Numbered from the stretch's first letter, positions 1,100 through 61,548 are shown. The stretch: DNA of 64,000 nucleotides from Candidatus Dojkabacteria bacterium (GCA_030583785.1 CP129475.1:479559-543558), one strand, 5' to 3'. Program-made: numbers and translations. Notes: generated by a model not told the origin, from the sequence alone.

Positions 1100-1122
1100 T
1101 AAATAATTAGTAATTATCAGAA

Positions 1123-10632: not shown

Positions 10633-10651
10633 AATGTCAGTTGATAATAAA

Positions 10652-11275
10652 TTAGGTAAGAGCTTCGTATGAACCGGTGTAATCTAAGCGCTCATAATCG
10701 CTTAGATCTTTGTATTTGTCTCCGAACCAATGCTTGATTTCTCTCTTTGCCTCTTCTGCAGAATCTGAACGATGCACCAAGGTTGAGAATACTATTCTTC
10801 CTGATTTAACCGCAAATTGAGGAGTATCAAATCCGAAGTCACCTCGAATCGATCCCACATCTGCAACTGTTGGATCTGTCCTACCTACAAGTTTCTCGAT
10901 CACCTTTACTGCTTGATTGCCTTCCCAGACAGAAATAACGACTGGGCCACTTACAAGATATCGTACTAACGAATCATAGATTTTGTTTCCAATTTCGAGT
11001 TTATCGACTGTGCCTAGATCAGTGAGTATTTGTTTGGCATCATTGTTGTAATTATTGTAGGTTTTCTCTCCCATCGTGGTAAGCCATTCTGTAGTTCCGG
11101 GATAATTACCTCTGGCTTGTGCTTCTGTCGCCTGAATCATTCTTGCCGCTACAAGTTTGAGACCAATTCTTTCCAGTCGAGAGAATATCTCTCCGACGAG
11201 TCCTCTTTTTACGCCATCTGGTTTTATCATTAAAAAAGTTTTCTCAATATTACTGAACTGTTTCTGCGGCATCAC
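10652..11275 (-). CDS. ndk: Nucleoside diphosphate kinase paralog (second tandem copy)
   Basis: 'TFLMIKPDGVKRGLVGEIFSRLERIGLKLVA' and 'LVHRSDSAEEA'. 207 aa, immediately upstream of the first copy. Confidence 0.85.
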   Translation of the reverse strand: MMPQKQFSNIEKTFLMIKPDGVKRGLVGEIFSRLERIGLKLVAARMIQATEAQARGNYPGTTEWLTTMGEKTYNNYNNDAKQILTDLGTVDKLEIGNKIYDSLVRYLVSGPVVISVWEGNQAVKVIEKLVGRTDPTVADVGSIRGDFGFDTPQFAVKSGRIVFSTLVHRSDSAEEAKREIKHWFGDKYKDLSDYERLDYTGSYEALT

Positions 11276-30266: not shown

Positions 30267-30268
30267 GT

Positions 30269-30386
30269 TCTGGCAATGACCTATTTTCCCAGCCAGCTTC
30301 CCGGCAAGTATCGTCGGCGCTGCTGCGTTTCACTTCTCTGTTCGGTATGGGAAGAGGTGGTGCCACAGCGCTACTATCACCAGACT
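30269..30386 (-). rRNA. 5S rRNA
   Basis: The reverse complement contains 'CCCATACCGAACAGAGAAGTGAAACGCAGCAGCGCCGA', the conserved 5S loop-B/helix-III region. The ends pair (TCTGGTG / GCCAGA). Confidence 0.8.
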
Positions 30387-30517: not shown

Positions 30518-33603
<3,086 letters not shown>

Positions 33604-33632: not shown

Positions 33633-33702
33633 CACAAAAAACAAAAAAACCTCCACGAACGAATATCGTTCGTGATCAATTATTCAGTTATTAAAGAGCA
33701 CA
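33633..33702 (-). promoter_or_regulatory. boxA-like antiterminator element plus terminator-like hairpin immediately upstream of 23S
   Basis: Minus strand reads TGCTCTTTAATAACTGAATAATTGATC (33674-33702; compare rrn boxA TGCTCTTTAACAA). Then a 9-bp hairpin CACGAACGA-TAT-TCGTTCGTG (33654-33674), then GGAGGTTTTTTTGTTTTTTG. Confidence 0.4.
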
Positions 33703-33901
33703 CGATACCGCGAATCTGGTCTTAATTCTTGGTCGAGAAAAAAACCGTTCGACTTAATGTAATCGTGCATCAAAATATATTGGAAATAGTAGAGGTTTGC
33801 CAATGTTGCCGTGCGGCAACTAAATCATGGTAAACATACCAATGTAGGAGATAATATCACAAAAAGAAGAAATAACACAAGCTTTTGCGTAAGAAAAACT
33901 A

Positions 33902-34555
33902 TTAATTATTTATCGACTGCTCTCCGATTTGCCCGCCTAAATGTAGCTTGGGCACTATCCTTTGTTCCAGATGATCATCATTCGAACTAGCTTGATCAAC
34001 AAAGTTTCCGGCTTGCGTAACCGGCTGCTGGGTAACGATCGCATTCAACTCTTCTTCATCGAGAAGCTCTTTACCTGCCTTTTGCTTAATTAGCTCGTAT
34101 ATCCTTGGCAGATATGGTTTAAGGGATTCAATTTCTCGCGTAATTATCCGAAGTGAGTATTCTTCGGCCTCATTCTTTCCTTTAACAAGTTCAAGGTATT
34201 CGGCAAGTTCTCTCTTTTGTTCTTCGCTCATAGATTTCTCAAATTCATCGTAAACGCCACTTACAAAATCTGCCCTAATTGAACCTGCGATCTCAACTAG
34301 TTCTGGATTTTTGATCAACTCCTTAAATTTGGCAAAACGAATATCCCCTTTAACACTATCGGTTGCACCTTCGTTAAAAATCTCTTCAACAAAATCACGA
34401 TCGAGACCTTTTTCGATTAGTGATTCTTCAAGAAAGATTTGCTGCGTTTTCGTAATAAACCATTCGATCTCGACATATCTGGATTCCAGCTCTTCGTCGT
34501 GCATGCCGCTTAGTATTTCTAGAACTTTTTTATCAAAATGTTTAATATTTGTCAT
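33902..34555 (-). CDS. Hypothetical acidic protein (217 aa)
   Basis: ORF only. Highly charged and helical. First gene upstream of 23S on the same strand. Confidence 0.45.
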   Translation of the reverse strand: MTNIKHFDKKVLEILSGMHDEELESRYVEIEWFITKTQQIFLEESLIEKGLDRDFVEEIFNEGATDSVKGDIRFAKFKELIKNPELVEIAGSIRADFVSGVYDEFEKSMSEEQKRELAEYLELVKGKNEAEEYSLRIITREIESLKPYLPRIYELIKQKAGKELLDEEELNAIVTQQPVTQAGNFVDQASSNDDHLEQRIVPKLHLGGQIGEQSINN

Positions 34556-34560
34556 TAATT

Positions 34561-36528
34561 TTAAGCCCCTGCTTGGGCAGGAACGGCAATTCCGCTATCG
34601 GTATAACTAAAAATATTAGCCAGATTAGCCATATTACCGAATCTGGCTTGCAAATGTCGCAATAATTGTGTCTTATTATCTGCTGCAAGATCTGGATAAG
34701 CTCCGTCAATAATAATAGTTTGTAACCCTTCAATAATTTGTTTGTAGCGATTCAAAAGATTTTTATCATCATCTGACCTCTCCTTGGCCATAGTCTCGAT
34801 GATTTTTGCTCTTTCCATTATCAAACGCCTGTATTCAAGTTCATGCTTTCTCATATCGTCGGTTATTCTTCCGTAATTCTCAAGATAATATTTTGATCCG
34901 TAGATTGCAGCAGAGAAACCACCGGCAGCGAGAAGTAGGTTAACTTGTGCCAAGCCTGCAACTCCAGAAACGCCAGCAATCCCAGCACCTGCCCCCGCAG
35001 CAATTAGCACTGGAACCATTACTCTTTGTGTCTTTCTAAGCCGTGCATAAAATTCTTGCCTTTTAGCTTCTAATAGAGCCTTTTCTGTCCCATAGGCACT
35101 ATACTCTTCACGAGCAGCTTGAAATTCTTCTCTGAATTTAACCTTTACATCACTGCCACCTTCTCCTTTGATCGTCATGGTACCTAGTTCAAGCTCAAGT
35201 TTTCGAAGTATTGCCTCTCGAATAGTCGTTGGAAGCCTTTTAAAGGCGGCTGACTGCTCTAGATTAGCCTTCATTGTATCGAAATCCATTGCTCCATCCG
35301 AGTCACCGGCAACTTCTTCTACCTGATCTCTGAAATTGACGATTTGTAAGATCTCTGCCCGTAGAGTTGGATTAATAGAAAGTTTGCCAATAAGATTTCT
35401 GACCTGCTCTGCCGTAAGACTGGTTCTACTGTTTTCAAATTCTCGCTTTATTAGACCGGCAATTGCATCAGCGTGCTTGATCTTGTCTGCTTCAGAAAGA
35501 TTATTGATTGCTTGCACCCGACCAATCAATCCGTCAATACTACTTTCTGTGAGTTGTGCCGTATCGACAGCTTGAATAAGACCTGCCGCTTCTCGATCTG
35601 CTTTTATTGTCCTGATTACTGATTTTTGCTCGTCGGAAATATCTGCATCATCTAACAAAGCATCGAGATCTTGGTCGGTAAGATTGCCCGCTTTTAGACT
35701 TTCTCTAATTGTGGTTTCATACTGCTTAATTGCTTTTCTCTTATCAATCAGTTCTTGTGTTTTGTCAGGTGGTGCCGTGACTTGATCAGGGAGTGTCGTT
35801 GTATCAACTGCATCAGCCCTATCTAGAGCAACATCAGGTGTGGGAGCATCAGCAGGTGTGGAATCAATATCAGGTGTGGGATCATCATCTGCGTCTTCGA
35901 GACTACCTGCAGTACTGGTAGCCACATCTATAGTCAGTTCGTACTCTTTTATCTTTTCAACAATTCCCGACTTAAGTTCTCTGAGCTCCACCAAATTATT
36001 ATTAACTGCTAATATGCTACCAAGTAACTCAGTCAGAGCCTTAGCATCTTCGATGTTTGTAGCATCAACATTCCCTTCATCTATCAGTCTAGCCTGTTGT
36101 ATACGCGAACCAATTTCCGTAAGAATTTTTCGTTTTAGTTCACCATCTTCTATTCCTTGAGTATTCATTGCATAATAAGCAAGCGTATCTGGTCTTAGAC
36201 TTGCAGGGTCAAGAAGGTTCTTGTCGAATAGTTTCTTTAATACTTCGAATTTTCTTGCTTTCTTCTTTTCATCTCTTCTATCTTGGGGGATTGATTGATC
36301 GTTATCGATTTGTGCGTCGATTGAACCTAGATTCAGCTGATTGGATATAACAGGTTTTAATGCCTCGACCTGATCATCGGGGACATTTATCTCTCCACCA
36401 GCGTAAATGCCCACAAGCTGGACATTCGCCTCGTTTACTAATTCTTCTTGTTTATCAGCTTCAGTAACCCCTGTTCGTGTTTCTGTTATTGATTCTAGAG
36501 TTGGTCTTGGAGATGAATCTGCACCCAT
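34561..36528 (-). CDS. Hypothetical 655-aa protein with C-terminal glycine-zipper transmembrane hairpin
   Basis: A ~40-residue Gly/Ala-rich hydrophobic segment ('VMVPVLIAAGAGAGIAGVSGVAGLAQVNLLLAAGGFSAAIYG') inside an otherwise charged, coiled-coil-like protein. Its start codon overlaps the upstream gene's stop codon (TAATG). Confidence 0.5.
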   Translation of the reverse strand: MGADSSPRPTLESITETRTGVTEADKQEELVNEANVQLVGIYAGGEINVPDDQVEALKPVISNQLNLGSIDAQIDNDQSIPQDRRDEKKKARKFEVLKKLFDKNLLDPASLRPDTLAYYAMNTQGIEDGELKRKILTEIGSRIQQARLIDEGNVDATNIEDAKALTELLGSILAVNNNLVELRELKSGIVEKIKEYELTIDVATSTAGSLEDADDDPTPDIDSTPADAPTPDVALDRADAVDTTTLPDQVTAPPDKTQELIDKRKAIKQYETTIRESLKAGNLTDQDLDALLDDADISDEQKSVIRTIKADREAAGLIQAVDTAQLTESSIDGLIGRVQAINNLSEADKIKHADAIAGLIKREFENSRTSLTAEQVRNLIGKLSINPTLRAEILQIVNFRDQVEEVAGDSDGAMDFDTMKANLEQSAAFKRLPTTIREAILRKLELELGTMTIKGEGGSDVKVKFREEFQAAREEYSAYGTEKALLEAKRQEFYARLRKTQRVMVPVLIAAGAGAGIAGVSGVAGLAQVNLLLAAGGFSAAIYGSKYYLENYGRITDDMRKHELEYRRLIMERAKIIETMAKERSDDDKNLLNRYKQIIEGLQTIIIDGAYPDLAADNKTQLLRHLQARFGNMANLANIFSYTDSGIAVPAQAGA

Positions 36529-36797
36529 TAATTCTTTTTATAATTTTCTAAATATTCTTGAGTGATACTTCCTCGTTCTACATCTTTATCAAAATTGAGT
36601 ACCATCTCGATAACCTTCTTATCATCATAGCCTTTTTTGCGCAGGTTTTGAACAAATCTTCGCAAGAAAGAATTGCTCATACGAGGTGCAGTGTAGATTG
36701 CTTTTTCTGCAGGCTTATCTAGATTAAGAGACGAAGTAGCTCCTTCTGCCATTGCCTTCAATATTTCTTCGGGTGACTGTGATTGTTGCATATTCAT
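36528..36797 (-). CDS. Hypothetical small protein (89 aa), translationally coupled to downstream gene
   Basis: ORF only. Its stop overlaps the next gene's start by 1 nt. Confidence 0.4.
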   Translation of the reverse strand: MNMQQSQSPEEILKAMAEGATSSLNLDKPAEKAIYTAPRMSNSFLRRFVQNLRKKGYDDKKVIEMVLNFDKDVERGSITQEYLENYKKN

Positions 36798-36826
36798 TTC
36801 TTAAGCTAATTTATTATACAGAAATA

Positions 36827-39800
36827 TTATTGTCTTGGAACATTCCTAAGTCTGGCTATACTAAGCGCAATTTCGTTAGCTTGGTCCGCATTGTACCCTT
36901 TTGTTGCGAGTAGAGCACGAACATTAGCATCGTTGACTGCGCCGGCCTGAGTAAGAGACCGCTCAAGTGCAGTCAGCGAAGCATTGTCACTTATCAGTGT
37001 TTGATACTCAACGCGTTCATAGGTCTTAAATCCAGGGAACCTACTTAATAAATTGCGTTCTTCTTGCAAGCGAAGATATGCAGCCTCAAGAGTATTCATA
37101 TAATCGAAAGTTCTTTTACCTGTCAGCTCAGTCACAATCTGCTGCCAAGTCTGGTTAGTTAAATCTGCCGGCAATGTTTCTGCAAGTTCTCTAATTGAAC
37201 CACTTGTGCTATTTCGTAATATTACAGCAACGGAATATTCTGCCTGAACCTGTTCATAATTGAGAAGTTTTATTAGTTGACCTTTTATACCTAGATCTAA
37301 GCGAGTTAACTGTACTTCTCTCATAAACAATTCAATCGCATTCTCTTTCGACACGACACCTTTAGATACAATTCTATCGATATAATCCCCTAAAAATTCT
37401 GAGTATCTAATCTGCTTGTAAGCATCTCCGTCGATAGTTTGGACAAGTCTTGCAAAGAAAGAAATATCGAAAGGATGATCAGCAGCTGATGGGAACTTAA
37501 GACTATTCGTGAAAATAATATTTAGAATTGGAAGATCTTCATCTTCGACCCCTCGTCTAGCTAGAACTTCTTCTAATACCGCTTCTGGCTTAATTCGACT
37601 TGTTTCAGTATGCCTATCTTCTGCCATCGAAAACGCCTCTTGATGTAAAATCAGAATCTCGGCTGCAACATCCATCAAATCTCCGAAATCAAGCCTATGC
37701 TCAAGTAGCTCGTCCCTGTCTTGAATGCTTTTTTCTGTAATCTTAGCACCTAGCAATGAAGCATATGCTGTTCGGGTTGTATCATTAATGACCTTTGATT
37801 CATAATCTGCTCGTGTATAGTTTTTCGGTCTCTCGGATCTGCCAGTATGTTGCACTTTGATTCCTTTGGATCGCATTAATGCACGGATTTTATCTGGCGA
37901 AGAAAAGTATGAAAGCTGTGAATCATTTCCGACCTCTACAGAAGATTCAATTCTCCTAAGTGCCTCGTTGAATAGCCTCTCTTGGAAACTATCGTAGAGA
38001 GATTCGTAGAAATATTGATTCTCTTCATTCATCAGATTCTGATCCTCCGCTTGTTCGATAGCTTGCAGTATATATCGGTACTCTCTAATTGATTCGACCC
38101 TCTGATCTAGGGCTGGAGCTGCTGTTTCGGGCTGTGCCCAAAAACGGAATGACCTTCTTCTTGTTGGTTGAGTAGTTCCAGCAGTTTGTCTAGCAAACTC
38201 TGCTCTAGCCTTAGCTCTAGCAATCTTTTGCAGGTCAGAGTATATCTGCCGAGTCTCGTTTCTTAGTTTTGCGTTCTGTTCATCTTGAGGAAAGCGAACG
38301 ATTTGCTCTTGCAGAGCCCTCCGTCTAAGTTCAATGTTGTGCGGGCTAATCACCATTAAAATACTTCTATTTGAGTGGACCTCTTGGGTGAGTATTCTAG
38401 CGAGTACACGCATTTCTGAAAAACCCAAGCCATACCTAAACGCATAATCACGGATATAATTACCCAGATCAGGTTTGAGTTTACTTTCTCTTGCTTGAAG
38501 TTTTGCACTTTCAAACTGTTCTGCGATTTCATCGGCAAGGTAAAGGAGCTCGGGGTAACCGATAGTCTGATCGTTACTTCTTAGACCAAGATATGCTTGG
38601 TTTATTCTATAAGCATAAGAATTCTGGTTATTAACTTCTTTTCGATGTTCATCTAGAAAATCATCTACCGTCGCTTTTAGATTTGCATATCTTTTCAGAT
38701 AATGCACAGATCCTACAACCCGCTCATTTAAGAAGCCAGCACCAGCATGCCTAAGCTCTTGTATGCTAAATAAATCGTCCGGATCCTCTGGTCTTAGACC
38801 GAATGTCAACATATCTTGCTTAAGCCTTAAGATTTGTTCTTGATCGGCCCCTTGACTAATCAGATAATTGATCCGATCATTAAAAGCTTCTCTTGTAAAT
38901 TCCTGTAAAAGTGCTACTTCCTCATCTACAAGATCACTTCTCTGGCTTTCTGCTCTAATTTCTCTTACGATTTTCTGAAATATTTTCCCTGCCTTATCTT
39001 CGGCTTCGCTAAAACTTAACGGAGAATTTGTGTCAAACTCTGCGTAATTCTTGCTGGTACCAAGTACAACTTTTGTCGTTTTACTTGTGTACAGATTTTT
39101 AAAGTTGATAATGTTTCCACCTGCAGGTAGTTGAAATGAACACTCTAGAATCAAAGCTTCAAGCTCTCTGTCACTAAGAGGTACGAAATATCTTCCTCCT
39201 GCAATTTCTGCTAGAAAGCTTTCGAAAAATTCTCGGTCAACTGGTTTTCCTAAACTTATTGCCTTCTCTTTAGCCAGCTGAAGCTGTTTAGAAAAAATGT
39301 CGCGATATATTCTTTTCTGAAAATATGATTGCTCAACAAGGGTATTTGTTCGTCGTCTAATATCTACTCTGCCTTCTGCAATTTTGTTCCTAGCACCTCT
39401 AGTTTCTTCGCTCTCGTGAGCACTTTGTCCTCTTCTTATGTTAGCTAAAGCCGCCTGAGCTATATTAAATTCATCTTCTGATAAGACTGCTTCTGTGTCT
39501 GTTTGACTGGTTTCTGCTCTTAGATCAGGTGTTGAAGCTTGATTAGAAGACCAGATATTTTGTATCTCTTGCGCCGTTAGATGGTAACCATGCTTTTCTG
39601 GATCAATCTTTTCTGCAATAAGAAATGCATCTAAAACACCGATAGTACGCTCTAGATCAGGTGGCATTCTTTTGCCTTGCTTTAGATAAGCTGATCCCCT
39701 TTCTTGAAGTTGTTTTAATTTAGCGGTAACAGCCATTGCCTCTGCAACTTCTAATGTGTCTCGATTAGGGTTAAAGCCTTCTGTTCCGTACAAATCTGTG

Positions 39801-40621
39801 ATTTCAATGTTTCTCAACTTTATCTCAACTCCATCGCTAATACCTTCTGTTGCCGCTACTGTTAATTGACTAGCAGAATCTTCTCTGCTAATCTTTTCGT
39901 TCAATACCTGCATGGAAACTATTGCCAGATAATCTTCTTGTGAAAACTGGATACTAGAATTTGACCCTTGTGCCAACAACAAGGGCGAGATTTGTTCGGT
40001 TCTATCTATCGTTTGCGTTATAACCTGTCTGAGCAATGCCTCTCTCACTCGAGGAGTTAATGGTTGTTTCTTTGCAATTTTTTCAATCTCGGAATTTACA
40101 GAATCAAGATATACGGTAATTTCAAGTGGTGCCTGATTTGTTCTTAGCCCAGAAAACAAGGCTTGCTTAAAGTTTTTAAGGCTGCTGATTCCAGACTGCA
40201 CAACCCTCTCCGGTCTAGTTGGATTAATTGTTCGTAAGATTTGTGTTTTTGCCTTTTGACGAATTCGGCTACCTTCGAGAATTAAAAGCTGAGGATCAGG
40301 CAGTTCAGCTGTTTCTTGAGAGGGACCAAGCCAGCTATTGCTTTCTTGCTGCGAAACCTTGAATAACAAATTCGTAAGATCGGTATTCAGTTTAGTGGCA
40401 TCTTGGTCACTTAGGCTTCGTTCTTCAGCATTAAGCAATTGCAATGTTTCTACGAACAGATCGTTTGCATCAGAAATATTTACTTCAGGACTTGTCTGAG
40501 TTGACTCGTCATCTGGCCTTAACAAGCTGTTTATTCGAGCAGATAAACTAGCTGCCGAACTTTCCGGAGTAACACTAAATCCTTCATTTATTCTTCTTTT
40601 TGGCAGATCATTCATAGGCAA
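36827..40621 (-). CDS. Giant hypothetical protein (1264 aa), no recognised domain
   Basis: Long uninterrupted ORF on the same strand as flanking genes and rRNA. Rich in E/R/Q/L, predicted helical. No signal peptide and no TM segment. Confidence 0.55.
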   Translation of the reverse strand: MPMNDLPKRRINEGFSVTPESSAASLSARINSLLRPDDESTQTSPEVNISDANDLFVETLQLLNAEERSLSDQDATKLNTDLTNLLFKVSQQESNSWLGPSQETAELPDPQLLILEGSRIRQKAKTQILRTINPTRPERVVQSGISSLKNFKQALFSGLRTNQAPLEITVYLDSVNSEIEKIAKKQPLTPRVREALLRQVITQTIDRTEQISPLLLAQGSNSSIQFSQEDYLAIVSMQVLNEKISREDSASQLTVAATEGISDGVEIKLRNIEITDLYGTEGFNPNRDTLEVAEAMAVTAKLKQLQERGSAYLKQGKRMPPDLERTIGVLDAFLIAEKIDPEKHGYHLTAQEIQNIWSSNQASTPDLRAETSQTDTEAVLSEDEFNIAQAALANIRRGQSAHESEETRGARNKIAEGRVDIRRRTNTLVEQSYFQKRIYRDIFSKQLQLAKEKAISLGKPVDREFFESFLAEIAGGRYFVPLSDRELEALILECSFQLPAGGNIINFKNLYTSKTTKVVLGTSKNYAEFDTNSPLSFSEAEDKAGKIFQKIVREIRAESQRSDLVDEEVALLQEFTREAFNDRINYLISQGADQEQILRLKQDMLTFGLRPEDPDDLFSIQELRHAGAGFLNERVVGSVHYLKRYANLKATVDDFLDEHRKEVNNQNSYAYRINQAYLGLRSNDQTIGYPELLYLADEIAEQFESAKLQARESKLKPDLGNYIRDYAFRYGLGFSEMRVLARILTQEVHSNRSILMVISPHNIELRRRALQEQIVRFPQDEQNAKLRNETRQIYSDLQKIARAKARAEFARQTAGTTQPTRRRSFRFWAQPETAAPALDQRVESIREYRYILQAIEQAEDQNLMNEENQYFYESLYDSFQERLFNEALRRIESSVEVGNDSQLSYFSSPDKIRALMRSKGIKVQHTGRSERPKNYTRADYESKVINDTTRTAYASLLGAKITEKSIQDRDELLEHRLDFGDLMDVAAEILILHQEAFSMAEDRHTETSRIKPEAVLEEVLARRGVEDEDLPILNIIFTNSLKFPSAADHPFDISFFARLVQTIDGDAYKQIRYSEFLGDYIDRIVSKGVVSKENAIELFMREVQLTRLDLGIKGQLIKLLNYEQVQAEYSVAVILRNSTSGSIRELAETLPADLTNQTWQQIVTELTGKRTFDYMNTLEAAYLRLQEERNLLSRFPGFKTYERVEYQTLISDNASLTALERSLTQAGAVNDANVRALLATKGYNADQANEIALSIARLRNVPRQ

Positions 40622-40675
40622 ATTATTGCAAAAACAACGATGAATAGCTAGATGAATAGGATTTTGACAGATTGA

Positions 40676-42331
40676 TTAAACAGCTCTCGAGAAATCTGAA
40701 TATACCGCCAAGAATGACTTTACTGCAGGATTATCTTGATCGTCTGACTTGCCTAATTTAACTTTAGGAATTTGTGAATTATTAGATACAACTATTTCGG
40801 CAAAAGCTCGATGTAGATCAAGCCAAGCATTAAAATTAACACCTTCATTTTTATCTGCAAGGGCCACCGGTACAGAGAAGATCTCGTTTTCTAATTTTAT
40901 TCGGGCCCACCGTCTAAACTTTTCATACCCAGCCTGCATTTTAATTTTTCTAAGAATCTCTGTATACCTCAACATATGCTCAATACTGATGTACCCTTGT
41001 ATAGCTAGTCCATTAACTGTATCGAACGAAGTGAGCAGTAAATCTGGAGACAGTTCCTCATCTTTATCTAAACCGGATAGAAGATAATCTAAAGCCCTAG
41101 AAAAATAATTATCAATTTTGTCTCGATGCGCTGTTATCGTTCCCAGAATTTCGCCGAGGACTTGCATTTGCTCATCCACTGCAGTAATTACCTGAGCTGA
41201 ATGGTCTGAAAGTTCGGAAATATTTTCATTTGCTATTTTATTGTATGCGTCTCGAACTATCCCCTCTTTTTCCTTTCCCTCATCAATAACCGAAGCGATT
41301 CTCTTTACCTTCACCTCTTGATTTTTCACCAACTGTTCTAAAAACGAAATGTTCGATCTGACCGAAGCTGTAGCGACTGAACTGTTTCTGAATAGGTCGT
41401 CAGTTTGGAAGGCCATCATACCTAAGGCACTAAATAACAAGAGGGCATCCTGGTCGGTTTTGGGATCTAACAACCCCTTTTTCTCTAGCTGTGCAATTGC
41501 CCTTTTGATTACGACTATGTTTTCGGAGCTAATATATTTCCCATCGCTAGAGGAACTAATAATAGCTGAGTATGCGGTTACTAAAGCATCAAGTCCCCTC
41601 ACCCTAGTGAAGTCCAATGCAATAATGTCATCAGTTTGCATCGAACCATTTGTGATTGTCGTATGATATGGATCTATTGTTCCAGTAATTATATCTCCTT
41701 GTTCATTAGCAGATAGGATAGTTATATGGGCATGACTCTGATTCCATCTAGGTAAGAATCCGCCTGAAGCCATATACTCCCTAGATACATCTGGTGCATA
41801 CTTTACACCCGACAATAGAAGACGATGTTGATCCAATAATTGTGGATTTAGTTTCTCGGCTAAAGTTTCAAAAACCATAACATACAACTGGTTAAATGCT
41901 CTACAATTTGTATGCTTTCCCCTCTCTGGATAGCCAATACAATCAGATATACTCCCTCTGGTAAAACTATTCATACCTTCTTTGTGCGACCCTGATGAAG
42001 ACCACAGAATGTTATTTGTTAACGCCAGCAAGTCTTCTAAGGTAATTCCAGCTTGCGATTCAGAATTCTCCCAAGAGTGTAATAAGTGGTGATACTGATT
42101 ATTCTGTTCTAGATACGGAACAATAACATTGCTTTGTAGGTATTCGCTCTCACCTTGAAATACTTCTGGTGTAGCTTCTAATGTTAAATCAAAAGGTTCT
42201 CTTTGCTTGTCAAGAAATTCGCGAATTGGTAATGGAATCTCACCTTTTTGCTTAGAGTGCTCTGTAAGAGGGAGAATCTCAACTTGAGATTCATCATTAA
42301 CAGCAATTTCAGGGTTTGGGTCCGTTAGCAT
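40676..42331 (-). CDS. Hypothetical 551-aa protein
   Basis: ORF only. Contains a 'DCIGYPERG...SHAHITIL...GDIITGTIDPYH' region with a Cys...His...Asp order (speculative papain/transglutaminase-like triad). Confidence 0.45.
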   Translation of the reverse strand: MLTDPNPEIAVNDESQVEILPLTEHSKQKGEIPLPIREFLDKQREPFDLTLEATPEVFQGESEYLQSNVIVPYLEQNNQYHHLLHSWENSESQAGITLEDLLALTNNILWSSSGSHKEGMNSFTRGSISDCIGYPERGKHTNCRAFNQLYVMVFETLAEKLNPQLLDQHRLLLSGVKYAPDVSREYMASGGFLPRWNQSHAHITILSANEQGDIITGTIDPYHTTITNGSMQTDDIIALDFTRVRGLDALVTAYSAIISSSSDGKYISSENIVVIKRAIAQLEKKGLLDPKTDQDALLLFSALGMMAFQTDDLFRNSSVATASVRSNISFLEQLVKNQEVKVKRIASVIDEGKEKEGIVRDAYNKIANENISELSDHSAQVITAVDEQMQVLGEILGTITAHRDKIDNYFSRALDYLLSGLDKDEELSPDLLLTSFDTVNGLAIQGYISIEHMLRYTEILRKIKMQAGYEKFRRWARIKLENEIFSVPVALADKNEGVNFNAWLDLHRAFAEIVVSNNSQIPKVKLGKSDDQDNPAVKSFLAVYSDFSRAV

Positions 42332-42403
42332 TTCAATACTCGAATAATATTCAAGCTAACATAATTCAGTAATTGAATCTACTAGTCAGAAGAAGGAGAA
42401 ATT

Positions 42404-42480
42404 TGGTGGAGCTGGTGGGATTCGAACCCACTACCTTCGCATTGCAAATGCGACGTTCTAGCCAAGTGAACTACAGCCCC
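42404..42480 (-). tRNA. tRNA-Ala (anticodon TGC), canonical 16S-23S spacer tRNA
   Basis: The reverse complement GGGGCTGTAGTTCA...TTTGCAA...CCACCAGCTCCACCA has G3:U70, anticodon UGC and encoded CCA. Confidence 0.85.
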
Positions 42481-42564
42481 GATTTGGTGGAGCCCCAGGA
42501 CTTGCACCTGAAAGGAAGCTTTATTGGAGACCAATATTCTTCCAGCCCCATTATTATTCTCAAA
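42481..42564 (-). other. tRNA-like remnant (degenerate 3' half of a tRNA) between tRNA-Ala and tRNA-Ile
   Basis: Begins TGGTGGAGCCCCAGGACTTGCACCTG, which is the reverse complement of CCA + acceptor + T-arm (CAGG-TGCAAGT-CCTG). No matching 5' half, so a full cloverleaf cannot be drawn. Confidence 0.3.
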
Positions 42565-42641
42565 GTGAGCGATCCTGGGCTCGAACCAGGGACCTCGGTC
42601 TTATCAGGACCGCGCTCTAACCAGCTGAGCTAATCGCTCAC
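42565..42641 (-). tRNA. tRNA-Ile (anticodon GAT), canonical 16S-23S spacer tRNA
   Basis: The reverse complement GTGAGCGATTAGCTCAGCTGGTTAGAGCGCGGTCCTGATAAGACCGAGGTCCCTGGTTCGAGCCCAGGATCGCTCAC is near-identical to typical bacterial tRNA-Ile-GAT. Confidence 0.85.
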
Positions 42642-42716
42642 TCTGACGATAATATTGGCATAATGATTATACTTGCATCAATCAAGTTGCGCAAGCGTTA
42701 GTGATGTTTAAACTAA

Positions 42717-42747
42717 GAGGCGCCGTCCAAAGGACGGCGCCTCACGA
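42717..42747 (-). terminator. Strong GC hairpin downstream of the anti-sigma-like gene (terminator or processing stem)
   Basis: GAGGCGCCGTCC-AAA-GGACGGCGCCTC, a perfect 12-bp stem. The downstream sequence on the minus strand is only weakly T-rich. Confidence 0.4.
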
Positions 42748-42761
42748 TTAACCCAACAATC

Positions 42762-44492
42762 TTACAAGCTAACTGTTATCTTATTTGAGTACTTTTCACA
42801 AACTCCTTCTGAGTTATAAGCACACACTCGGACACAATAGTCACCGGATCCATCAAATGCATAGATCGAGAAAGTACTGGAGAAAGTGTGCGATGCTTCT
42901 GTTGATGCACCTGTTGGATATGTAGGATACTCGTCTACTTTTGACCAAACAACCTTGAATCCGTTAGAAGAGCTTCCATTTACTGTCCAGCCAACTTTGG
43001 CTCCGCCTTTGGCAAACAGATCAATAGACGACACACCTGCAGAAGCCTTATTTGGAGCAGTTATTGTTACATTATTACTGTAGCTGTCACAGCTGTTCGT
43101 ACTTGAATTATATCTGCATACTCTAAAGTGGTATGTCTTTCCATCTGTCAAACCTACTTTTGCAGAACTCTTTCCTCCATCAAAATACTTTGGATTGTCT
43201 GCTGGATAGGTTGGGTTTGGATTCAAGGAACGAACAAGCTTAAACCCTTCTGAGGCATTTAATCCTGATACTGTCCAATTAAGTTGAATACCGTCAGCAA
43301 CAGATGAACCGCTCAGCTTGATCCCGACGAAAGGCTTTTGTGTTGGCGCTACTGTTGGTTGAGCCTTGCGAACAACCGTAATTTTCTTCTCGGCATAATT
43401 ACCGGCAGCGTCTTTAGCACCAATCTTGATTATGTTACTTCCGACAACAAGGTCAACCTTTGCGGAGAAAGATCCTTGATTGTTTTCTACCTCGTTACCA
43501 TTAACAAAAACTCTTGCACCAGCTTCTGTACTACCGCTTAGATCAATTGTTGCTGCTTGTGTTTCAAAATTATCTGCAGGGGAATCAATTGCTAAAGCTG
43601 GAGGAGTTATATCTTTAAGAATTCCTAATTGGTTTTCTGACTTAACGATTTTTATATCTTTTTCTCTGTTCCAAAGAGCAAATTCATTCTTTTTGATTTC
43701 TTCAATGTCTAATGCAAATTTTTCTCCTTCTGCACCTTGTTCACCCTTTTTAAAGCTGTAGCCATTACCCTCTTCGACAACAAGTTCTTTACCTTGTTTT
43801 TTATTCATCTTCACTTTACTTTCGTAAACCAGCAATCCTTCTTCGTCAGTAGACTTAGAAACTTGGTAAGCAGTACCTAACGAGAAGTACTCTGCGTCTT
43901 CTGTAGCTAACGAAAAGTCTCGATCAAGTTTGACCACCCTGGCATAAGCTGATCCAGACAATAATTCGACTTTGATGTCTTGCGGATCAAGCGATGCGAA
44001 TTTTATCTCTGTAAGATGATCGATTCTAACCGCAGAGCCGTCGTCGATATTTACAATAGCTCGTGCATCTTCTTGTGAACGGATTGTGTCACCTTCTTCT
44101 ATCTGTTGACCGTTACTTAAGGCGACCCACTCATCATTGACAAAATATTCAATGGTTCCTTCTGCATAAATGACTTCTGCGCCCAATTTAGCTACTACAG
44201 AATCTTTTTGCTCAACTGTAGCTTGGCGACCTAACAACACAACTGCTCCGACTACTGCTAATACAGTTAGTGAAGCTGTAAGACCAATGACGGCCTTATT
44301 CCTAAAGATGGCGAATACTTTCGACATTCTGTTTTGGGGAGTTTCCCTATTACTAAAATTATTTAAGTACAATGCATTCAGCTCGTGCCTAAGCGATTCA
44401 CGAAAAGCATTGTCAGCAATAGAGTTACTACTCACCTGCGCATGTGAGAAGAAATCTTGCGGAGTTTTACTTTTGCTTTTGTCGCTCTGCAT
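42762..44492 (-). CDS. Putative anti-sigma factor-like membrane protein (N-terminal cytoplasmic segment, single TM, FecR-like and Ig/FN3-like extracytoplasmic repeats)
   Basis: TM helix 'VIGLTASLTVLAVVGAVVLLG' after a ~60-aa N-terminal region. Immediately downstream of, and 17 nt from, an ECF sigma gene. C-terminal repeated beta-rich modules. Confidence 0.5.
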   Translation of the reverse strand: MQSDKSKSKTPQDFFSHAQVSSNSIADNAFRESLRHELNALYLNNFSNRETPQNRMSKVFAIFRNKAVIGLTASLTVLAVVGAVVLLGRQATVEQKDSVVAKLGAEVIYAEGTIEYFVNDEWVALSNGQQIEEGDTIRSQEDARAIVNIDDGSAVRIDHLTEIKFASLDPQDIKVELLSGSAYARVVKLDRDFSLATEDAEYFSLGTAYQVSKSTDEEGLLVYESKVKMNKKQGKELVVEEGNGYSFKKGEQGAEGEKFALDIEEIKKNEFALWNREKDIKIVKSENQLGILKDITPPALAIDSPADNFETQAATIDLSGSTEAGARVFVNGNEVENNQGSFSAKVDLVVGSNIIKIGAKDAAGNYAEKKITVVRKAQPTVAPTQKPFVGIKLSGSSVADGIQLNWTVSGLNASEGFKLVRSLNPNPTYPADNPKYFDGGKSSAKVGLTDGKTYHFRVCRYNSSTNSCDSYSNNVTITAPNKASAGVSSIDLFAKGGAKVGWTVNGSSSNGFKVVWSKVDEYPTYPTGASTEASHTFSSTFSIYAFDGSGDYCVRVCAYNSEGVCEKYSNKITVSL

Positions 44493-44508
44493 CGTACCTA
44501 ATAATTCG

Positions 44509-45075
44509 TTAATCTAATATAAAAGTTTCAGTATCCGGGAAATGCTTCTGAAACTGCACTTTAAACGACTGAAGCGCCCTATGCGCTAGGACTTTAACAT
44601 TATCTGTGCGAATCTTCATAATCTTAGCTATTTCGTCGTTTGATAAATCTGAATAGAACTTATATGTTATGACTTCTTGGTAGCGAGAATTCAACTTAGA
44701 AAGAACAAATGCTACCTGAACCTGCAATTCTTCTTGGATAGCATCTGATTCAACGGAAAGTGATTCATCTGCAACGCTAGAGAAATCGTTCATAGAATCG
44801 TATTTACCTCTGCGGTAGTAGTCAATGACTTTGTTATGTGCAACTCTGTATAACCAAGAACCGAATCTGTAACCTTTTGTTGTATCAAAATCTGCAAGCT
44901 TTTCGACCGCAGACATAAATACCTGACTTGTAATGTCCTCTGCTACTTCTCTTTGTGGGAGTCTGGCCGAGCAATACCTAAAGATTCCGTCGAAATACAT
45001 ATCATACAACTTGTTGAAAGCTTGCAAATTGCTTTTGGCTTCTTCGATTAGTTTTAATTCTTCTGCAAGTTCCAA
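44509..45075 (-). CDS. ECF-type RNA polymerase sigma-70 family factor
   Basis: Region 2 ('FGSWLYRVAHNKVIDYYRR') and region 4 HTH ('LSNDEIAKIMKIRTDNVKVLAHRALQ'). Confidence 0.8.
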   Translation of the reverse strand: MELAEELKLIEEAKSNLQAFNKLYDMYFDGIFRYCSARLPQREVAEDITSQVFMSAVEKLADFDTTKGYRFGSWLYRVAHNKVIDYYRRGKYDSMNDFSSVADESLSVESDAIQEELQVQVAFVLSKLNSRYQEVITYKFYSDLSNDEIAKIMKIRTDNVKVLAHRALQSFKVQFQKHFPDTETFILD

Positions 45076-45149
45076 GTATTTAGTATCAACTAAAAAATTA
45101 TACTAGAGCAGATTTTAGCTAACCAGTATTATATCTGGAATTCTCAATA

Positions 45150-45181
45150 TAAAAAAAATACCACCTAGTTTAGGTGGTATT
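45150..45181 (-). terminator. Rho-independent terminator ~150 nt downstream of the 16S 3' end
   Basis: ATACCACCTA-GTT-TAGGTGGTAT perfect 10-bp stem followed on the minus strand by TTTTTTTT. Confidence 0.6.
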
Positions 45182-45328
45182 AATTGACAACAAAAAAGGT
45201 GACAGGCGTTCAACGCCAAGGTTAAAGGTTTTTGTTTACCTGAAGCATTCCAGCATCAGGAAGGGGTGGTCCAAAACGATAACTTTGCATTTTTACAACC
45301 CCATATGCAAAGTACCTTTTACTCCTTA

Positions 45329-46835
<1,507 letters not shown>

Positions 46836-47110
46836 AACACTTTATGGCCGTGTTTTCAGCCAGCTTTGTATGTAAACACACAAAGACTTTAATCATCGTC
46901 TTAAATGTGCAAGCACATTTAAGCCGGAATTATCTGTAAAGATTGACGTGAACATTTAATATACCCAATAAAGGGTACATTCCTGTCACCTTTTCTGTTG
47001 TCAAGGAGCTTGACTTACTAATTCAATGAGTGAAAAGTAGTATCAAAGCACTCTGATTAGAGTGTATAGCGATTTTACCAGACCAAGCGGTAAATAGTCA
47101 AAGGTTTTTA

Positions 47111-58218: not shown

Positions 58219-59094
58219 ATGACTTTACAAGAAAGCCAACAACAATTTATAGAGTCTCTACGGGCAAAAAAAAGGTCTGAATCCACCATTGTAGCTTATA
58301 GCAAAGACATAGATCAACTGCTTGTGTTCATGAGTAAACAAGGCCTGCCAAAAGAATGTAAAGAGTTAACAACAGAGGTATTAACCAAATATGTAGATGA
58401 ACTCAAGAAGGAAGGTAGCTATACCCTGAAAACTATCTCTCGGAAAATTAACAGTCTCAAAACCTTTTCCAAGTTTTTATTAGGCGAAAACCTTATAGTA
58501 GTAGATGTAGCAGAACCAATAGCGCATCCCGAATATACTAGTCAGCCACAGAGAATCCTCTCGCCGCTTGAATATCGTGCGCTTAGAGATTGCGCCAGAA
58601 CAAACTTGAGGTTATTCACTATGGTAGAACTCTTGCTTCAGACCGGTATTCGCATCGGAGAATTATCTCGACTAAAAAAATCCGATCTAAACCTAGAAAA
58701 AGGTGAGCTTAGAATTGAGGCTTTTTCAAGTAACAGGGAAAGGATAGTAGAACTTAACAGTCTGGCAATTGAGGCCTTACGGACATTTACAGATACAGAC
58801 AACACATTCAAAAACCAAAAGGATGATTACTTATTTAAAACAAAAACCGGCAGACCAGTTTTGATCAGGAACATTCGCACTGCCATTAATCGAGCATTCA
58901 AAAAAGCAGGCATTAAGAATGCAACTGTCAACGACATTCGCAACACATTCATTGTTTATCAACTTGAACAAGGGATTAGAACAGATAGACTTGCTGAACT
59001 TGTCGGCCATCAGAAACCATCAACAACAGAAAAGTATCTTGACTTGGTCGCCCAAAGACCAACAAAGACTCACACAAAAATTGATCCACTCTAG
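58219..59094 (+). CDS. Tyrosine site-specific recombinase (XerC/XerD / phage-integrase family)
   Basis: N-terminal SAM-like core-binding domain ('ESTIVAYSKDIDQLL'). C-terminal catalytic region with 'LVGHQKPSTTEKYLDL' (HxxR...Y). Confidence 0.8.
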   Translation: MTLQESQQQFIESLRAKKRSESTIVAYSKDIDQLLVFMSKQGLPKECKELTTEVLTKYVDELKKEGSYTLKTISRKINSLKTFSKFLLGENLIVVDVAEPIAHPEYTSQPQRILSPLEYRALRDCARTNLRLFTMVELLLQTGIRIGELSRLKKSDLNLEKGELRIEAFSSNRERIVELNSLAIEALRTFTDTDNTFKNQKDDYLFKTKTGRPVLIRNIRTAINRAFKKAGIKNATVNDIRNTFIVYQLEQGIRTDRLAELVGHQKPSTTEKYLDLVAQRPTKTHTKIDPL

Positions 59095-59219
59095 TATTTC
59101 CAATTAACGCTTGCTAGTGATAGAATTGACTCCATAGTGGGCCAGCCCACATGCCATGTTTGTGGCATGATGAGCGGTTAGGTTATAACTAACCAGAGCA
59201 AAACGCCTTTGATAAAGGC

Positions 59220-59293
59220 GGGCTAGTAGCTCAGGAGGTCAGAGCACCGTTCTTATAAAGCGGGGGTCGGTGGTTCGAGTCCACCCTGGCCCA
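59220..59293 (+). tRNA. tRNA-Ile (anticodon TAT/UAU)
   Basis: Hand-folded cloverleaf: acceptor GGGCTAG/CTGGCCC, D-arm GCTC-AGGAGGTCA-GAGC, anticodon stem CCGTT/AGCGG with loop CTTATAA (anticodon nt 59254-59256), T-arm GGTGG-TTCGAGT-CCACC, discriminator A. No CCA. Confidence 0.75.
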
Positions 59294-59331
59294 CTTAAAA
59301 ACCCAAAAGATATTGCTTCTGTCATAGATAA

Positions 59332-61548
59332 TCAGAATAGAATTATCAAGACAACAAAAATTATAACTATGACTGAGCAGGCCTCTATCATTTGCCCGAA
59401 TCTCGGATCGAAGAAGAAGCCGACTGAATCACTCTTTTTTACTTCTGGTTTCTGCATACTACTAACAGGTAGAAGCATCTGCGAGTAGTGTAAATGAAAG
59501 TAATGAAACAACGCTATGAATACGACAAATATCCATCCCACCATCAGAACAAGTAAATTTTGAACAAAACCATTGCGTATATTCAGATATTCGGTTGTAT
59601 CAGTAATAACATTCTGATCGTCACCTCTGTCGAAGATGATTTGCAAGGAATCAATTTCTGAGGGTTTATCTGAATTTGGCGCTAAGAACATTTTGAAAAA
59701 GAATTCTCCAGCGCCTACTTGCTGGTTGAATGAATCAAGATTATCTGAGACTTCGGAGATCGAACTTGAATTTCCCTTGTCTTTTGCTGGCTTCCATTGG
59801 CCGGAATCATAATAGTACCAAACTTTATTATCATTACTTATTTGCATTACAGCATCTCCGTGGGCTTCAATCTCATTTAGCACATTATATTTTATTCCTA
59901 CTTTATTCTGGATTGAGGGGCTGTCGCTTCTGAAGTATTGTGGTTCGATATCAATACTGAGAATACCTGGACTACTGCCCGGTTCAATCGTGTTTAGCTC
60001 TAGACGAAATTGAAAATATCTTCCCTGCTTGTCGGTAGTTACGATGTATCTGTTCGCTTCAGCATAGCTCGGTATATAGTAGCTGTCTTCTCCATCTGGG
60101 CCAGTAAAAGGATTTTCGCAAACAGATTCTTCACAAGCCCGGATCTGAAGTTTTAATCCGTATGCACCTCTTCTGAAACTATCATTGATTTCGATTGCGT
60201 TTAGGACTCTATTAAATACTGCTATCTCGTCTAGATAACCTTCGTAAGTTTGCTCCGGATTAAATGCACCTCCGATCTCGTCTTGCTCTTCACCGATAAC
60301 AAGTGATCCAAAAGATCCAAACTTTCCGCCTTGCGCTAATGTTTTTCTTGATGCAAAATATCCGTCTTTATAAACCGTAACCGTTCCAGTAGATGACTTC
60401 CATGTAACCGCAACATGATGCCATTCTCCATCATTGACAGAAACCCCGGTTCTTATTCCAAATCCATTAACATAGACAAGAATATCCGCTGGATCAAAAA
60501 TTACCCAGTCGTTTCTATTCACTGTTGAGGCATAAGAGACAATTGCCTGATCTCTTTGCTTGGATTTTATCCAGAACATTGTTGTTATCTCTTCTTCTGG
60601 AAAAGACAAAAAAGGATATATTTGCAGGTAATCATTGTTTCCATCAAAATAAAGCGAATTTGAGAATATGCCGTCGGCAATTGTGACACCAATATTTTGA
60701 GCATCGTTGTTTGAACCAGAAGCGTCAAGGACTTTGCTTAAGCCGGACTCTTCACGAATAGTGTCCGAATGAAGTAGTAATACATTACCTAGCATGTTCA
60801 TATTCGCCTGAAAAAAATCCTGGTCGAAGCCTGCATTATCGGGCAAAGGTTTCGCAATCGGAACATCTGTTAGAATATTAACTTGTTGCCATGAAGCACC
60901 CGACTTGGTGCTGTCAATAATTTGCGATGTGTAAAATCCTGACCCATAAAGCATGCCTTTATCAGTTAGTTTTAATACAGAAAGTCCACTGTCGTAGCGA
61001 GTGTCCTCGTATAAGCCCTCTGTAAAATCTCGATTCGAGGATAAGGTCTGTTTTATCGGAAGCGTTATAGCCTTACCTTTTTCAAATCCGATTTCACTCT
61101 GATTAAAAATGTATTCAGCAGGATCAGAAAAATCCCAGAGCTGACGGTTAAGAGGTTCGTACTTAATGGACAACATAGCTACAACGACAAAGATTGCAAT
61201 TAATATTGCTAACAAAGAGTAACCGGTCAATAACAATCTTGCCTTTTTAAGTTTGGGATGATAACTAAATACATACACATCGTTCTTTACGACTTCAATC
61301 CCTTTGCTTGGTCTAGAGAATATCCAATTGAAAAAGTGAAGAAAAATTTGTAGAAAAGATGCATGGCGCAACCTTTTAATGTGCTTGTAATCCTCAGCAG
61401 TCAAATGATGTAAGTACTTGGACAGTTTCTTCATTTTAACTGTTTTTTTAGCCAGACTTTGGTTTAAGAGGTGCATTATATCCCCCGGCGCCCATACCCG
61501 GCGCTCCCATAAAGCCACCCGGTGCAGGTTTCTTTGATTTCTTACCAC
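59332..61548 (-). CDS. Membrane protein with concanavalin-A/LamG-like lectin (laminin-G/pentraxin-like) domain
   Basis: 'LYFDGNNDYLQIY...TMFWIKS...GEWHHVAVTW...TVTVYKDG...GYLDEIAVFNRVL' is a LamG jelly-roll signature. TM helices near both termini. Confidence 0.55.
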   Translation of the reverse strand: MVRNQRNLHRVALWERRVWAPGDIMHLLNQSLAKKTVKMKKLSKYLHHLTAEDYKHIKRLRHASFLQIFLHFFNWIFSRPSKGIEVVKNDVYVFSYHPKLKKARLLLTGYSLLAILIAIFVVVAMLSIKYEPLNRQLWDFSDPAEYIFNQSEIGFEKGKAITLPIKQTLSSNRDFTEGLYEDTRYDSGLSVLKLTDKGMLYGSGFYTSQIIDSTKSGASWQQVNILTDVPIAKPLPDNAGFDQDFFQANMNMLGNVLLLHSDTIREESGLSKVLDASGSNNDAQNIGVTIADGIFSNSLYFDGNNDYLQIYPFLSFPEEEITTMFWIKSKQRDQAIVSYASTVNRNDWVIFDPADILVYVNGFGIRTGVSVNDGEWHHVAVTWKSSTGTVTVYKDGYFASRKTLAQGGKFGSFGSLVIGEEQDEIGGAFNPEQTYEGYLDEIAVFNRVLNAIEINDSFRRGAYGLKLQIRACEESVCENPFTGPDGEDSYYIPSYAEANRYIVTTDKQGRYFQFRLELNTIEPGSSPGILSIDIEPQYFRSDSPSIQNKVGIKYNVLNEIEAHGDAVMQISNDNKVWYYYDSGQWKPAKDKGNSSSISEVSDNLDSFNQQVGAGEFFFKMFLAPNSDKPSEIDSLQIIFDRGDDQNVITDTTEYLNIRNGFVQNLLVLMVGWIFVVFIALFHYFHLHYSQMLLPVSSMQKPEVKKSDSVGFFFDPRFGQMIEACSVIVIIFVVLIILF

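Follow-up and report, generated by a model that had tools for sequence, protein, structure and literature searches.

A sigma factor gene and a FecR-domain membrane protein gene between 16S rRNA and tRNA-Ile in a Candidatus Dojkabacteria bacterium

FecR-type regulators and the present gene pair

In the E. coli FecI-FecR(-FecA) and Pseudomonas FoxI-FoxR systems, the gene of an extracytoplasmic function (ECF) sigma factor lies directly upstream of that of a single-pass membrane regulator. E. coli FecR cleaves itself at Gly181-Thr182; signal-dependent degradation and cleavage by RseP then release an N-terminal fragment to FecI (PMC12036975). A gene pair of comparable layout, coding for an ECF sigma factor of 188 amino acids (aa) and a membrane protein of 576 aa, is described here from a Candidatus Dojkabacteria bacterium. 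It is located in a stretch of 64,000 nucleotides (GCA_030583785.1, CP129475.1:479559-543558; hereafter the window), between the 16S ribosomal RNA (rRNA) gene and the gene of the isoleucine transfer RNA (tRNA-Ile). Coordinates are counted from the first letter of the window and, for the pair and the whole rRNA locus, refer to the minus strand. The reading favoured here, to which a probability of roughly 0.72 is given, is that of a conventional ECF sigma factor with a co-transcribed membrane anti-sigma factor, whose position is a by-product of the break-up of the rRNA locus and which takes no part in rRNA or tRNA control.

Other described systems share single features with this pair. Outside the enterobacterial iron system, an ECF sigma factor is likewise associated with a FecR-like regulator in Leptospira interrogans (LIC12757/LIC12756), as reported in two studies (PMC12155086; PMC13118517). 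There the N-terminal domain is given as the key determinant of anti-sigma activity (PMC12155086; PMC13118517). Parabacteroides distasonis BDI_1681 (4m0h/4m0n), the only solved match by both sequence and fold, is an uncharacterised structural-genomics target and shares the FecR domain alone. The solved sigma factors nearest by sequence are those of PDB entries 6dxo (E = 3.5e-18), the Streptomyces BldN-RsbN complex, and 5wuq, B. subtilis SigW (E = 2.2e-17); in both the 6dxo and the SigW-RsiW systems the gene of a membrane anti-sigma factor is co-transcribed with that of the sigma factor.

The genomic setting also has precedents. By a published definition, rRNA genes are unlinked if more than 1500 bp separate 16S from 23S, an arrangement common in Patescibacteria (Brewer et al., 10.1101/705046). 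Lui et al. found unlinked genes in 27 of 34 circularised genomes of the candidate phyla radiation (CPR), and tRNAs and protein-coding genes in the spacer are explicitly described (PMC8172020). The organism examined here corresponds to candidate division WS6 (Candidatus Dojkabacteria) bacterium OLB21, since both proteins match its entries exactly: KXK07894.1, named "ECF RNA polymerase sigma factor SigW" in GenBank, and KXK07893.1, named "FecR protein". Both are also present on a 1.17-Mb contig. OLB21 is uncultured and tiny, with a small genome. The SigW and FecR annotations already exist, and for this phylum the separation of rRNA genes by spacers that contain protein-coding genes has been published; current understanding is unchanged by this locus.

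The upstream gene of the pair (44509-45075) codes for what is, by domain content, an ECF (group 4) sigma factor. Its product matches Pfam Sigma70_r2 (PF04542; 56.4 bits, cut-off 24; residues 23-90) and, at residues 124-170, Sigma70_r4_2 (PF08281; 39.7 bits, cut-off 25.7) and PF04545 (29.6 bits, cut-off 24.1), as well as the NCBIfam sigma70-ECF model TIGR02937 (93.7 bits, cut-off 42.9). Regions 2 and 4 are the only ones matched; regions 1.1 and 3 are absent. The TTG start codon is supported by orthologues from six other genomes, whose alignment starts at residue 1. The best NCBIfam model is that of the BldN family, at 123 bits and thus under its 206-bit cut-off; the protein remains below the equivalog cut-offs and is consequently not an orthologue of either SigW or BldN. 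Nor is it FecI-like, with 21% identity to E. coli FecI (pairwise E = 7e-4).

The downstream gene (42762-44492) begins on the same strand 16 nt after the 3' end of the sigma gene. Its product has a single transmembrane segment (residues 66-88; 44229-44297), recognised by hydrophobicity and aligned as a hydrophobic block in all homologues. Residues 1-65 (44298-44492), on the cytoplasmic side, form the N-terminal module proposed as the sigma-binding segment. Beyond the membrane lie a FecR domain (residues 135-228; 43809-44090; PF04773, 39.5 bits, cut-off 24) and a region (42768-43601) composed of an immunoglobulin (Ig)-like domain and two fibronectin type III (FN3)-like domains. The Ig-like domain corresponds to Pfam Glucodextran_B (60 bits, residues 298-376). 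The FN3-like domains, at residues ~390-478 and ~489-575, match Pfam fn3 weakly, and in the homologue alignment each holds a conserved cysteine pair (C459 and C468; C557 and C565). An AlphaFold model built on a 20-sequence alignment has a mean predicted local distance difference test (pLDDT) score of 79.5. In this model the ectodomain is beta-rich and mostly at 80-94, and the N-terminus is of low confidence, its one longer helix being predicted for about residues 28-47. A sequence-profile search of the PDB with the FecR domain retrieved 4m0n, a "putative anti-sigma factor" (E = 1.2e-5), and Foldseek matched the fold of this domain to 4m0h (TM-score 0.56 on the target). In NCBIfam the protein also weakly matches the Leptospira FecR-domain lipoprotein LipL45 (28.6 bits, cut-off 350).

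These results agree with most of what had been proposed for the pair in the original prediction, made by a model from the DNA sequence. Sigma regions 2 and 4 are recognisable, the partner is a single-pass protein with a beta-rich ectodomain in which a domain search identifies the FecR family, and the pair does lie within the 16S-to-tRNA-Ile spacer. The gene coordinates also hold, and the gap between the two genes, given as 17 nt, measures 16 nt. The FecR domain, the membrane topology and an N-terminal module strictly tied to an adjacent sigma gene favour the proposed pairing of sigma and anti-sigma factor.

The likeness to FecR extends to the putative cleavage site. As in FecR, a cytoplasmic N-terminus is followed by one transmembrane segment and an extracytoplasmic PF04773 domain. 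Gly206 and Thr207 (codons at 43872-43877), inside this domain, are invariant across 20 diverse homologues and, in a profile alignment, coincide exactly with the position mapped as the self-cleavage site in E. coli FecR, Gly181-Thr182 (PMC12036975). Several other features differ. The N-terminus matches no Pfam model, so that no known anti-sigma domain, such as the sigma-binding one of FecR, was recognised there. The twin-arginine motif used for Tat insertion of E. coli FecR is absent before the transmembrane segment (...AIFRNKAVIG..., with no RR), and the ectodomain continues past the FecR domain with one Ig-like and two FN3-like domains. Unlike in FecIRA, no gene for a TonB-dependent transducer was found in the window or within 10 kb in the homologous loci L001 and L004. 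Patescibacteria are not known to possess an outer membrane. The protein also differs from RsiW, the partner of SigW: it lacks the zinc-binding anti-sigma (ZAS) motif HxxxCxxC, its first cysteine being residue 459, its cytoplasmic domain has no Pfam match, zf-HC2 included, and its ectodomain is entirely different. By analogy, the system would work like a FecR-type regulator, of which, given that several defining features of the FecIRA family are missing, it is probably a variant.

A mechanism can be proposed on this basis. The ~60-residue cytoplasmic N-terminus would keep the sigma factor at the membrane, and the ectodomain, with its FecR, Ig-like and two disulphide-type FN3-like domains, would sense something at the cell surface. 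The FecR domain would cleave itself at the invariant Gly206-Thr207, as in FecR/FoxR-type regulators; a signal would then allow the protein to be degraded further and the sigma factor to be set free, in a cascade that may be comparable to that of FecR. If so, the locus would define a Patescibacteria-restricted type of FecR-domain anti-sigma factor, with a short, previously unmodelled, sigma-linked N-terminal module, a Gly-Thr site, and an Ig/FN3 ectodomain standing where FecR contacts the TonB-dependent receptor. Through it, these very small and probably host-attached cells might perceive their environment despite having no outer membrane.

The N-terminal module and the adjacent sigma gene

Relatives of the 576-aa protein were sought by scanning one genome per species, which gave 75 loci, almost all labelled Patescibacteria. 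The comparison of modules covers 73 proteins, 20 with an adjacent sigma gene and 53 without. The 20 linked homologues are encoded directly downstream of an ECF sigma gene, with a gap of 1-21 nt except for one at 118 nt, and every one of them has a segment of 59-100 aa ahead of the transmembrane segment. In the sigma-less homologues with a locatable transmembrane segment (n = 50), the latter starts at a median of residue 12. A hidden Markov model of the N-terminal module matches all 20 linked proteins, as expected by construction, and two of the 53 unlinked ones. Both of these begin at contig edges, where an upstream sigma gene could not be seen; the 51 sigma-less proteins away from contig edges are all devoid of the module.

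The 20-sequence alignment shows how the two forms are related. Near residue 56, about 10 residues before the transmembrane segment, its sigma-linked proteins usually have a methionine that coincides with the start of the sigma-less relatives. In terms of sequence, the putative anti-sigma form is therefore the surface-protein form to which a single N-terminal module has been added. The family would thus illustrate that the difference between an anti-sigma factor and a plain membrane-anchored surface protein can lie in a single N-terminal module. Its strict co-occurrence with an adjacent sigma gene is the reason for which the module is read as the sigma-binding part, and it supports a role of the 576-aa protein as anti-sigma factor. 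The original prediction had named the lack of an anti-sigma-like cytoplasmic segment as an observation that would speak against such a role. A dedicated segment, predicted to be cytoplasmic, is present, though outside any described class.

The 576-aa protein could instead be a membrane-anchored surface protein, an adhesin or a sensor, that shares an operon with a sigma factor regulated in some other way. This is consistent with about 50 of the 73 family loci, in which both the adjacent sigma gene and the cytoplasmic segment are missing, and with the best Foldseek matches of the 576-aa model, which are adhesin- or receptor-like strings of Ig/FN3 domains. The N-terminus, moreover, matches no anti-sigma domain model and is the part in which AlphaFold confidence is low. 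Against this, the N-terminal module strictly accompanies an adjacent sigma gene, and almost all linked genes are tightly spaced, at 1-21 nt. The FecR domain with its conserved Gly-Thr site is typical of sigma regulators, and a study of a FecR-like protein of Leptospira reports that the N-terminal domain determines anti-sigma activity (PMC13118517). A mere surface protein is for these reasons considered unlikely, and an anti-sigma factor is preferred.

The pair within a split rRNA locus

From 16S to 5S, every gene is read from the minus strand. The 16S gene (45330-46836; RF00177, 1429 bits, full length) is followed by the pair, tRNA-Ile with anticodon GAT (42565-42639), tRNA-Ala with anticodon UGC (42404-42480), a block of five open reading frames (ORFs; 551, 1264, 89, 655 and 217 aa; 33902-42331), the 23S gene (30523-33591) and the 5S gene (30268-30384). 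The distance between 16S and 23S is 11,738 bp in a CPR genome, which places the locus among the unlinked ones as defined in 10.1101/705046. Compared with a canonical rrn operon, the gene order and the common strand are conserved, but the short spacer (<=1500 bp) is not, and instead of a single transcript the sequence predicts a terminator, a hairpin and a promoter inside the locus. Published CPR unlinked loci differ in two respects: the papers describing them name no sigma/anti-sigma pair as spacer content, and here the spacer tRNAs Ile and Ala stand together, detached from both rRNA genes. A literature search found no paper that names a sigma/anti-sigma pair as rRNA spacer content.

The 16S gene appears to have a unit of its own. 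It is preceded by a sigma-70-type promoter-like site (TTGACT-18-TAAAAT, with TG before the -10 box; 47072-47101; 10 of 12 consensus matches), which may serve as its promoter. A 5' leader strand (GACAACAGAAAAGGTGACAGG; 46982-47002) is complementary to a 3' trailer strand (CCTGTCACCTTTTTTGTTGTC; 45186-45206) whose sequence is identical in OLB20, a related bacterium (contig L017). The resulting helix of 21 bp with one G-U pair, also found in OLB20, is presumably the usual pre-16S processing stem of RNase III type. Directly after it comes a predicted intrinsic terminator (45151-45181), with an 11-bp stem (45181-45157) and U8, whose folding energy is -14.1 kcal/mol (z = -4.6; none of 200 shuffles folds as well). 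OLB20 has an equivalent one at the same place. The first terminator-like site after 16S, GGCGTTGAACGCC with a U-run, was rejected: its fold is weak (z = -1.2) and the U-run belongs to the 21-bp leader-trailer helix. When the complete leader and trailer are folded together as a long-range duplex, the result is over-fitted, and only the 21-bp helix was retained from it.

Similar signals flank the pair. A candidate -10 box of the sigma gene, TATAAT (45097-45102), lies 21 nt before the TTG start, and TATACT is found at an equivalent distance in OLB20 and in a third species, represented by contig L092. The anti-sigma gene is followed by a terminator-like GC hairpin (42717-42743; 12-bp stem, then UUAGUUU) of -26.4 kcal/mol (z = -6.2). 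Equivalent hairpins occur after the orthologues in L017 (-21.3 kcal/mol) and L092 (-27.6 kcal/mol), and z ranges from -4.4 to -6.2 in the three species. Next comes a putative housekeeping-type promoter of tRNA-Ile, TTGCGC-17-TATAAT (42666-42694), the counterpart of which in both L017 and L092 is TTGAGT-17-TATAAT at the same place. The pair thus appears to have its own promoter and terminator, and transcription of 16S, of the pair and of tRNA-Ile with tRNA-Ala seems to be organised in three separate units. The clean terminator that the original prediction had placed at 45150-45181, between 16S and the pair, and the strong GC hairpin it had placed at 42717-42747, after the anti-sigma gene, were both recovered in this way, the latter in all three species.

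Several observations weigh against the reading of a conventional pair independent of its rRNA surroundings. Even with a threshold as loose as E = 10, Pfam had no match to the N-terminal 95 residues of five orthologues. Because the N-terminus has no domain-model match and low AlphaFold confidence, it is from co-occurrence that sigma binding by residues 1-65 is deduced. The window shows no gene for a site-2 protease. No ECF target promoter was identified, either by motif scan or in 19 upstream regions. Promoter- and terminator-like sites in the region are no more frequent than in shuffled sequence, and the case for insulation is accordingly built on position and cross-species conservation. Finally, the U-tract of the hairpin at 42717-42743 (UUAGUUU) is weak, so that some read-through into tRNA-Ile is possible.

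The original prediction had gone further and suggested that expression of the spacer tRNAs, the inserted block and 23S/5S could be coupled to an extracytoplasmic signal. Either the pair would be part of a co-transcribed rrn operon, or the sigma factor would drive promoters within the locus. The common strand from 16S through 5S suits such coupling, as do the hairpin without a strong U-tract after the anti-sigma gene and the interval from tRNA-Ala to the end of the 217-aa ORF, where no terminator-like site occurs bar one weak match inside that ORF. The position of the pair has also been kept in three species although their anti-sigma proteins are only 43-47% identical. Against this, a strong terminator is predicted immediately after the 16S processing helix, and a housekeeping-type promoter before tRNA-Ile in three species. 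rrn antitermination mainly counters Rho-dependent termination, not strong intrinsic terminators. The proposed ECF-type motif fares no better: in all intergenic regions from the 16S leader to 5S, AAC-N15-19-CGT has one match, in the 16S trailer upstream of the terminator, so that the relevant regions, including those of the block and the 23S leader, have none. On the same strand from 47200 to 30200, the only match to GAAC-N15-18-CGT is inside 23S. Upstream of the sigma gene itself no AAC-N-CGT motif was found. When the regions upstream of 19 homologous sigma genes were searched de novo for bipartite motifs, with low statistical power, the best motif was present in 5 of 19, compared with 4-6 for shuffled sequences.

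Comparison between species leads in the same direction. The order 16S, pair, tRNA-Ile is common only to the window, OLB20 and the L092 species. OLB20 and OLB21 are 94.3-94.4% identical in 16S, 57% in the sigma factor and 47% in the anti-sigma factor. The order in OLB20 is 16S, a major facilitator superfamily (MFS) transporter gene and a 191-aa ORF (L017 7316-9279), sigma, anti-sigma, tRNA-Ile, an aldo-keto reductase gene (L017 12508-13590), tRNA-Ala and an IS200-like transposase gene (L017 14962-15588). The rRNA locus of OLB20 behaves as an insertion hot spot. In L092, where the anti-sigma protein is 43% identical, sigma and anti-sigma are followed by a 76-aa ORF, tRNA-Ile, about 1 kb and tRNA-Ala. 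In a more distant relative (contig L096; 16S 84% identical), 16S and tRNA-Ile are 833 nt apart with no pair between them. Unrelated inserts thus separate 16S from sigma in OLB20 and anti-sigma from tRNA-Ile in L092, which speaks against coupling. Neither is the pair bound to rRNA elsewhere: in eighteen other species with a sigma-linked homologue there is no rRNA gene within 10 kb, and the pair never adjoins tRNA-Ile or tRNA-Ala. Upstream of 16S, the ligase gene and the genes of two small membrane proteins (p107 and p141) are also syntenic between OLB21 and OLB20, so the conserved position is probably no more than shared ancestry. Taken together with the predicted terminator, hairpin and tRNA-Ile promoter, these data make coupling distinctly improbable.

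A variant of this idea supposes that the pair is the sole genomic copy and has been kept beside 16S for its function, the sigma factor or read-through at the hairpin tuning expression of the tRNAs, the block or 23S-5S. This is given very little credence. If true, it would constitute an envelope-to-ribosome link in a reduced-genome episymbiont, responding to a surface signal such as host contact.

That the arrangement is a chimeric assembly at conserved 16S, or mobile DNA inserted very recently, is scarcely credible: metagenome assemblies do often break or mis-join at rRNA genes, many pair-bearing Logan contigs begin 70-280 nt before the sigma gene and OLB20 has an IS200-like transposase gene nearby, but the same junction occurs in the independent OLB21 assembly L011 and in a 745-kb OLB20 contig, the G+C content of the pair (0.40) equals that of its surroundings, and the orthologues have diverged to 43-57% identity while retaining their place. 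L011 (16S at 2-1506, sigma at 1760) reproduces the order throughout, from 16S and the pair by way of both tRNAs and the five ORFs to the start of 23S, and the independent Logan contig L012 preserves the order from the sigma gene through the 23S start; mis-assembly is thereby excluded.

The position of the pair is most likely inherited synteny, tolerating inserts on both sides, in an rRNA locus pulled apart by successive insertions. The locus would then be a clear multi-species case of stepwise break-up of an rRNA operon, with different inserts at different points in sister species.

A tRNA-like element and other features of the window

Between tRNA-Ile and tRNA-Ala, and outside the sigma module, there is a conserved tRNA-like element of 66 nt (42485-42550). 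Counterparts were found at L017 12203-12260, L092 2901-2958 and L096 1033-1100 (minus strand); the element adjoins tRNA-Ile in L017 and L092 and tRNA-Ala in L096. Its acceptor stem has 7 bp, GGGGCU(G)/GGCUCC with a G-U third pair, A73 and an encoded CCA, and is of alanine type or similar to that of transfer-messenger RNA (tmRNA). A T-like arm, CCAGG-UGCAAGY-CCUGG, is also present, together with one central hairpin in which three pairs covary. The 25 nt at its 3' end are identical, bar one C/T position, in four taxa with 16S 84-94% identical, and the element is more conserved than the neighbouring tRNA-Ala. ARAGORN made no call for it, and an E-value scan of 42380-42780, hairpins included, revealed no Rfam family. 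A metagenome scan for the element matched a single contig. In L096, the stretch between tRNA-Ile and the element codes, at 1105-1422 (minus strand), for a protein of 105 aa that has a tRNA-binding domain (PF01588, 73.6 bits), a suggestive neighbour as regards the function of the element. Possible roles of the element are those of a 't-element'-type processing signal and of a minihelix that can be charged, and it may deserve more attention than the sigma/anti-sigma finding itself.

The five tightly packed ORFs begin 72 nt after tRNA-Ala. The only terminator-like site from tRNA-Ala to the end of the block is weak (6-bp stem, 34024-34008) and inside the last ORF, and for this reason the five ORFs may be co-transcribed with the tRNAs. 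The block has no Pfam, NCBIfam or PHROG match and hence no sign of a prophage, and no counterpart was found in the 8 kb downstream of the OLB20 tRNA-Ala. Upstream of 23S, a terminator-like hairpin with U7 (33653-33675) lies between the only good promoter-like site, TTGGCA-18-TATATT (33774-33803), and the 23S 5' end.

Elsewhere the window consists of ordinary housekeeping DNA of the chromosome, with genes for NusG, L11-L1-L10-L12, MreB, LeuRS, Rho, a RadA-like protein, a ClpC-like protein, S1, PolA, FtsH and an ATP-dependent ligase. The G+C content is uniform, at ~0.39-0.40 outside the rRNA genes. Towards one end, a tyrosine recombinase gene (58219-59094) adjoins a tRNA-Ile with the rare anticodon UAU (59220-59294), after which are encoded a pentraxin/LamG-domain protein and a HerA/TraG-like ATPase; the whole segment (58219-63985) may be an integrated mobile element. 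Two tandem genes resembling nucleoside-diphosphate kinase (NDK), coding for 199 and 207 aa, are found at 10033-11275 (minus strand), and in both the match to the NDK model is divided into two stretches, suggesting that the domain contains an insertion.

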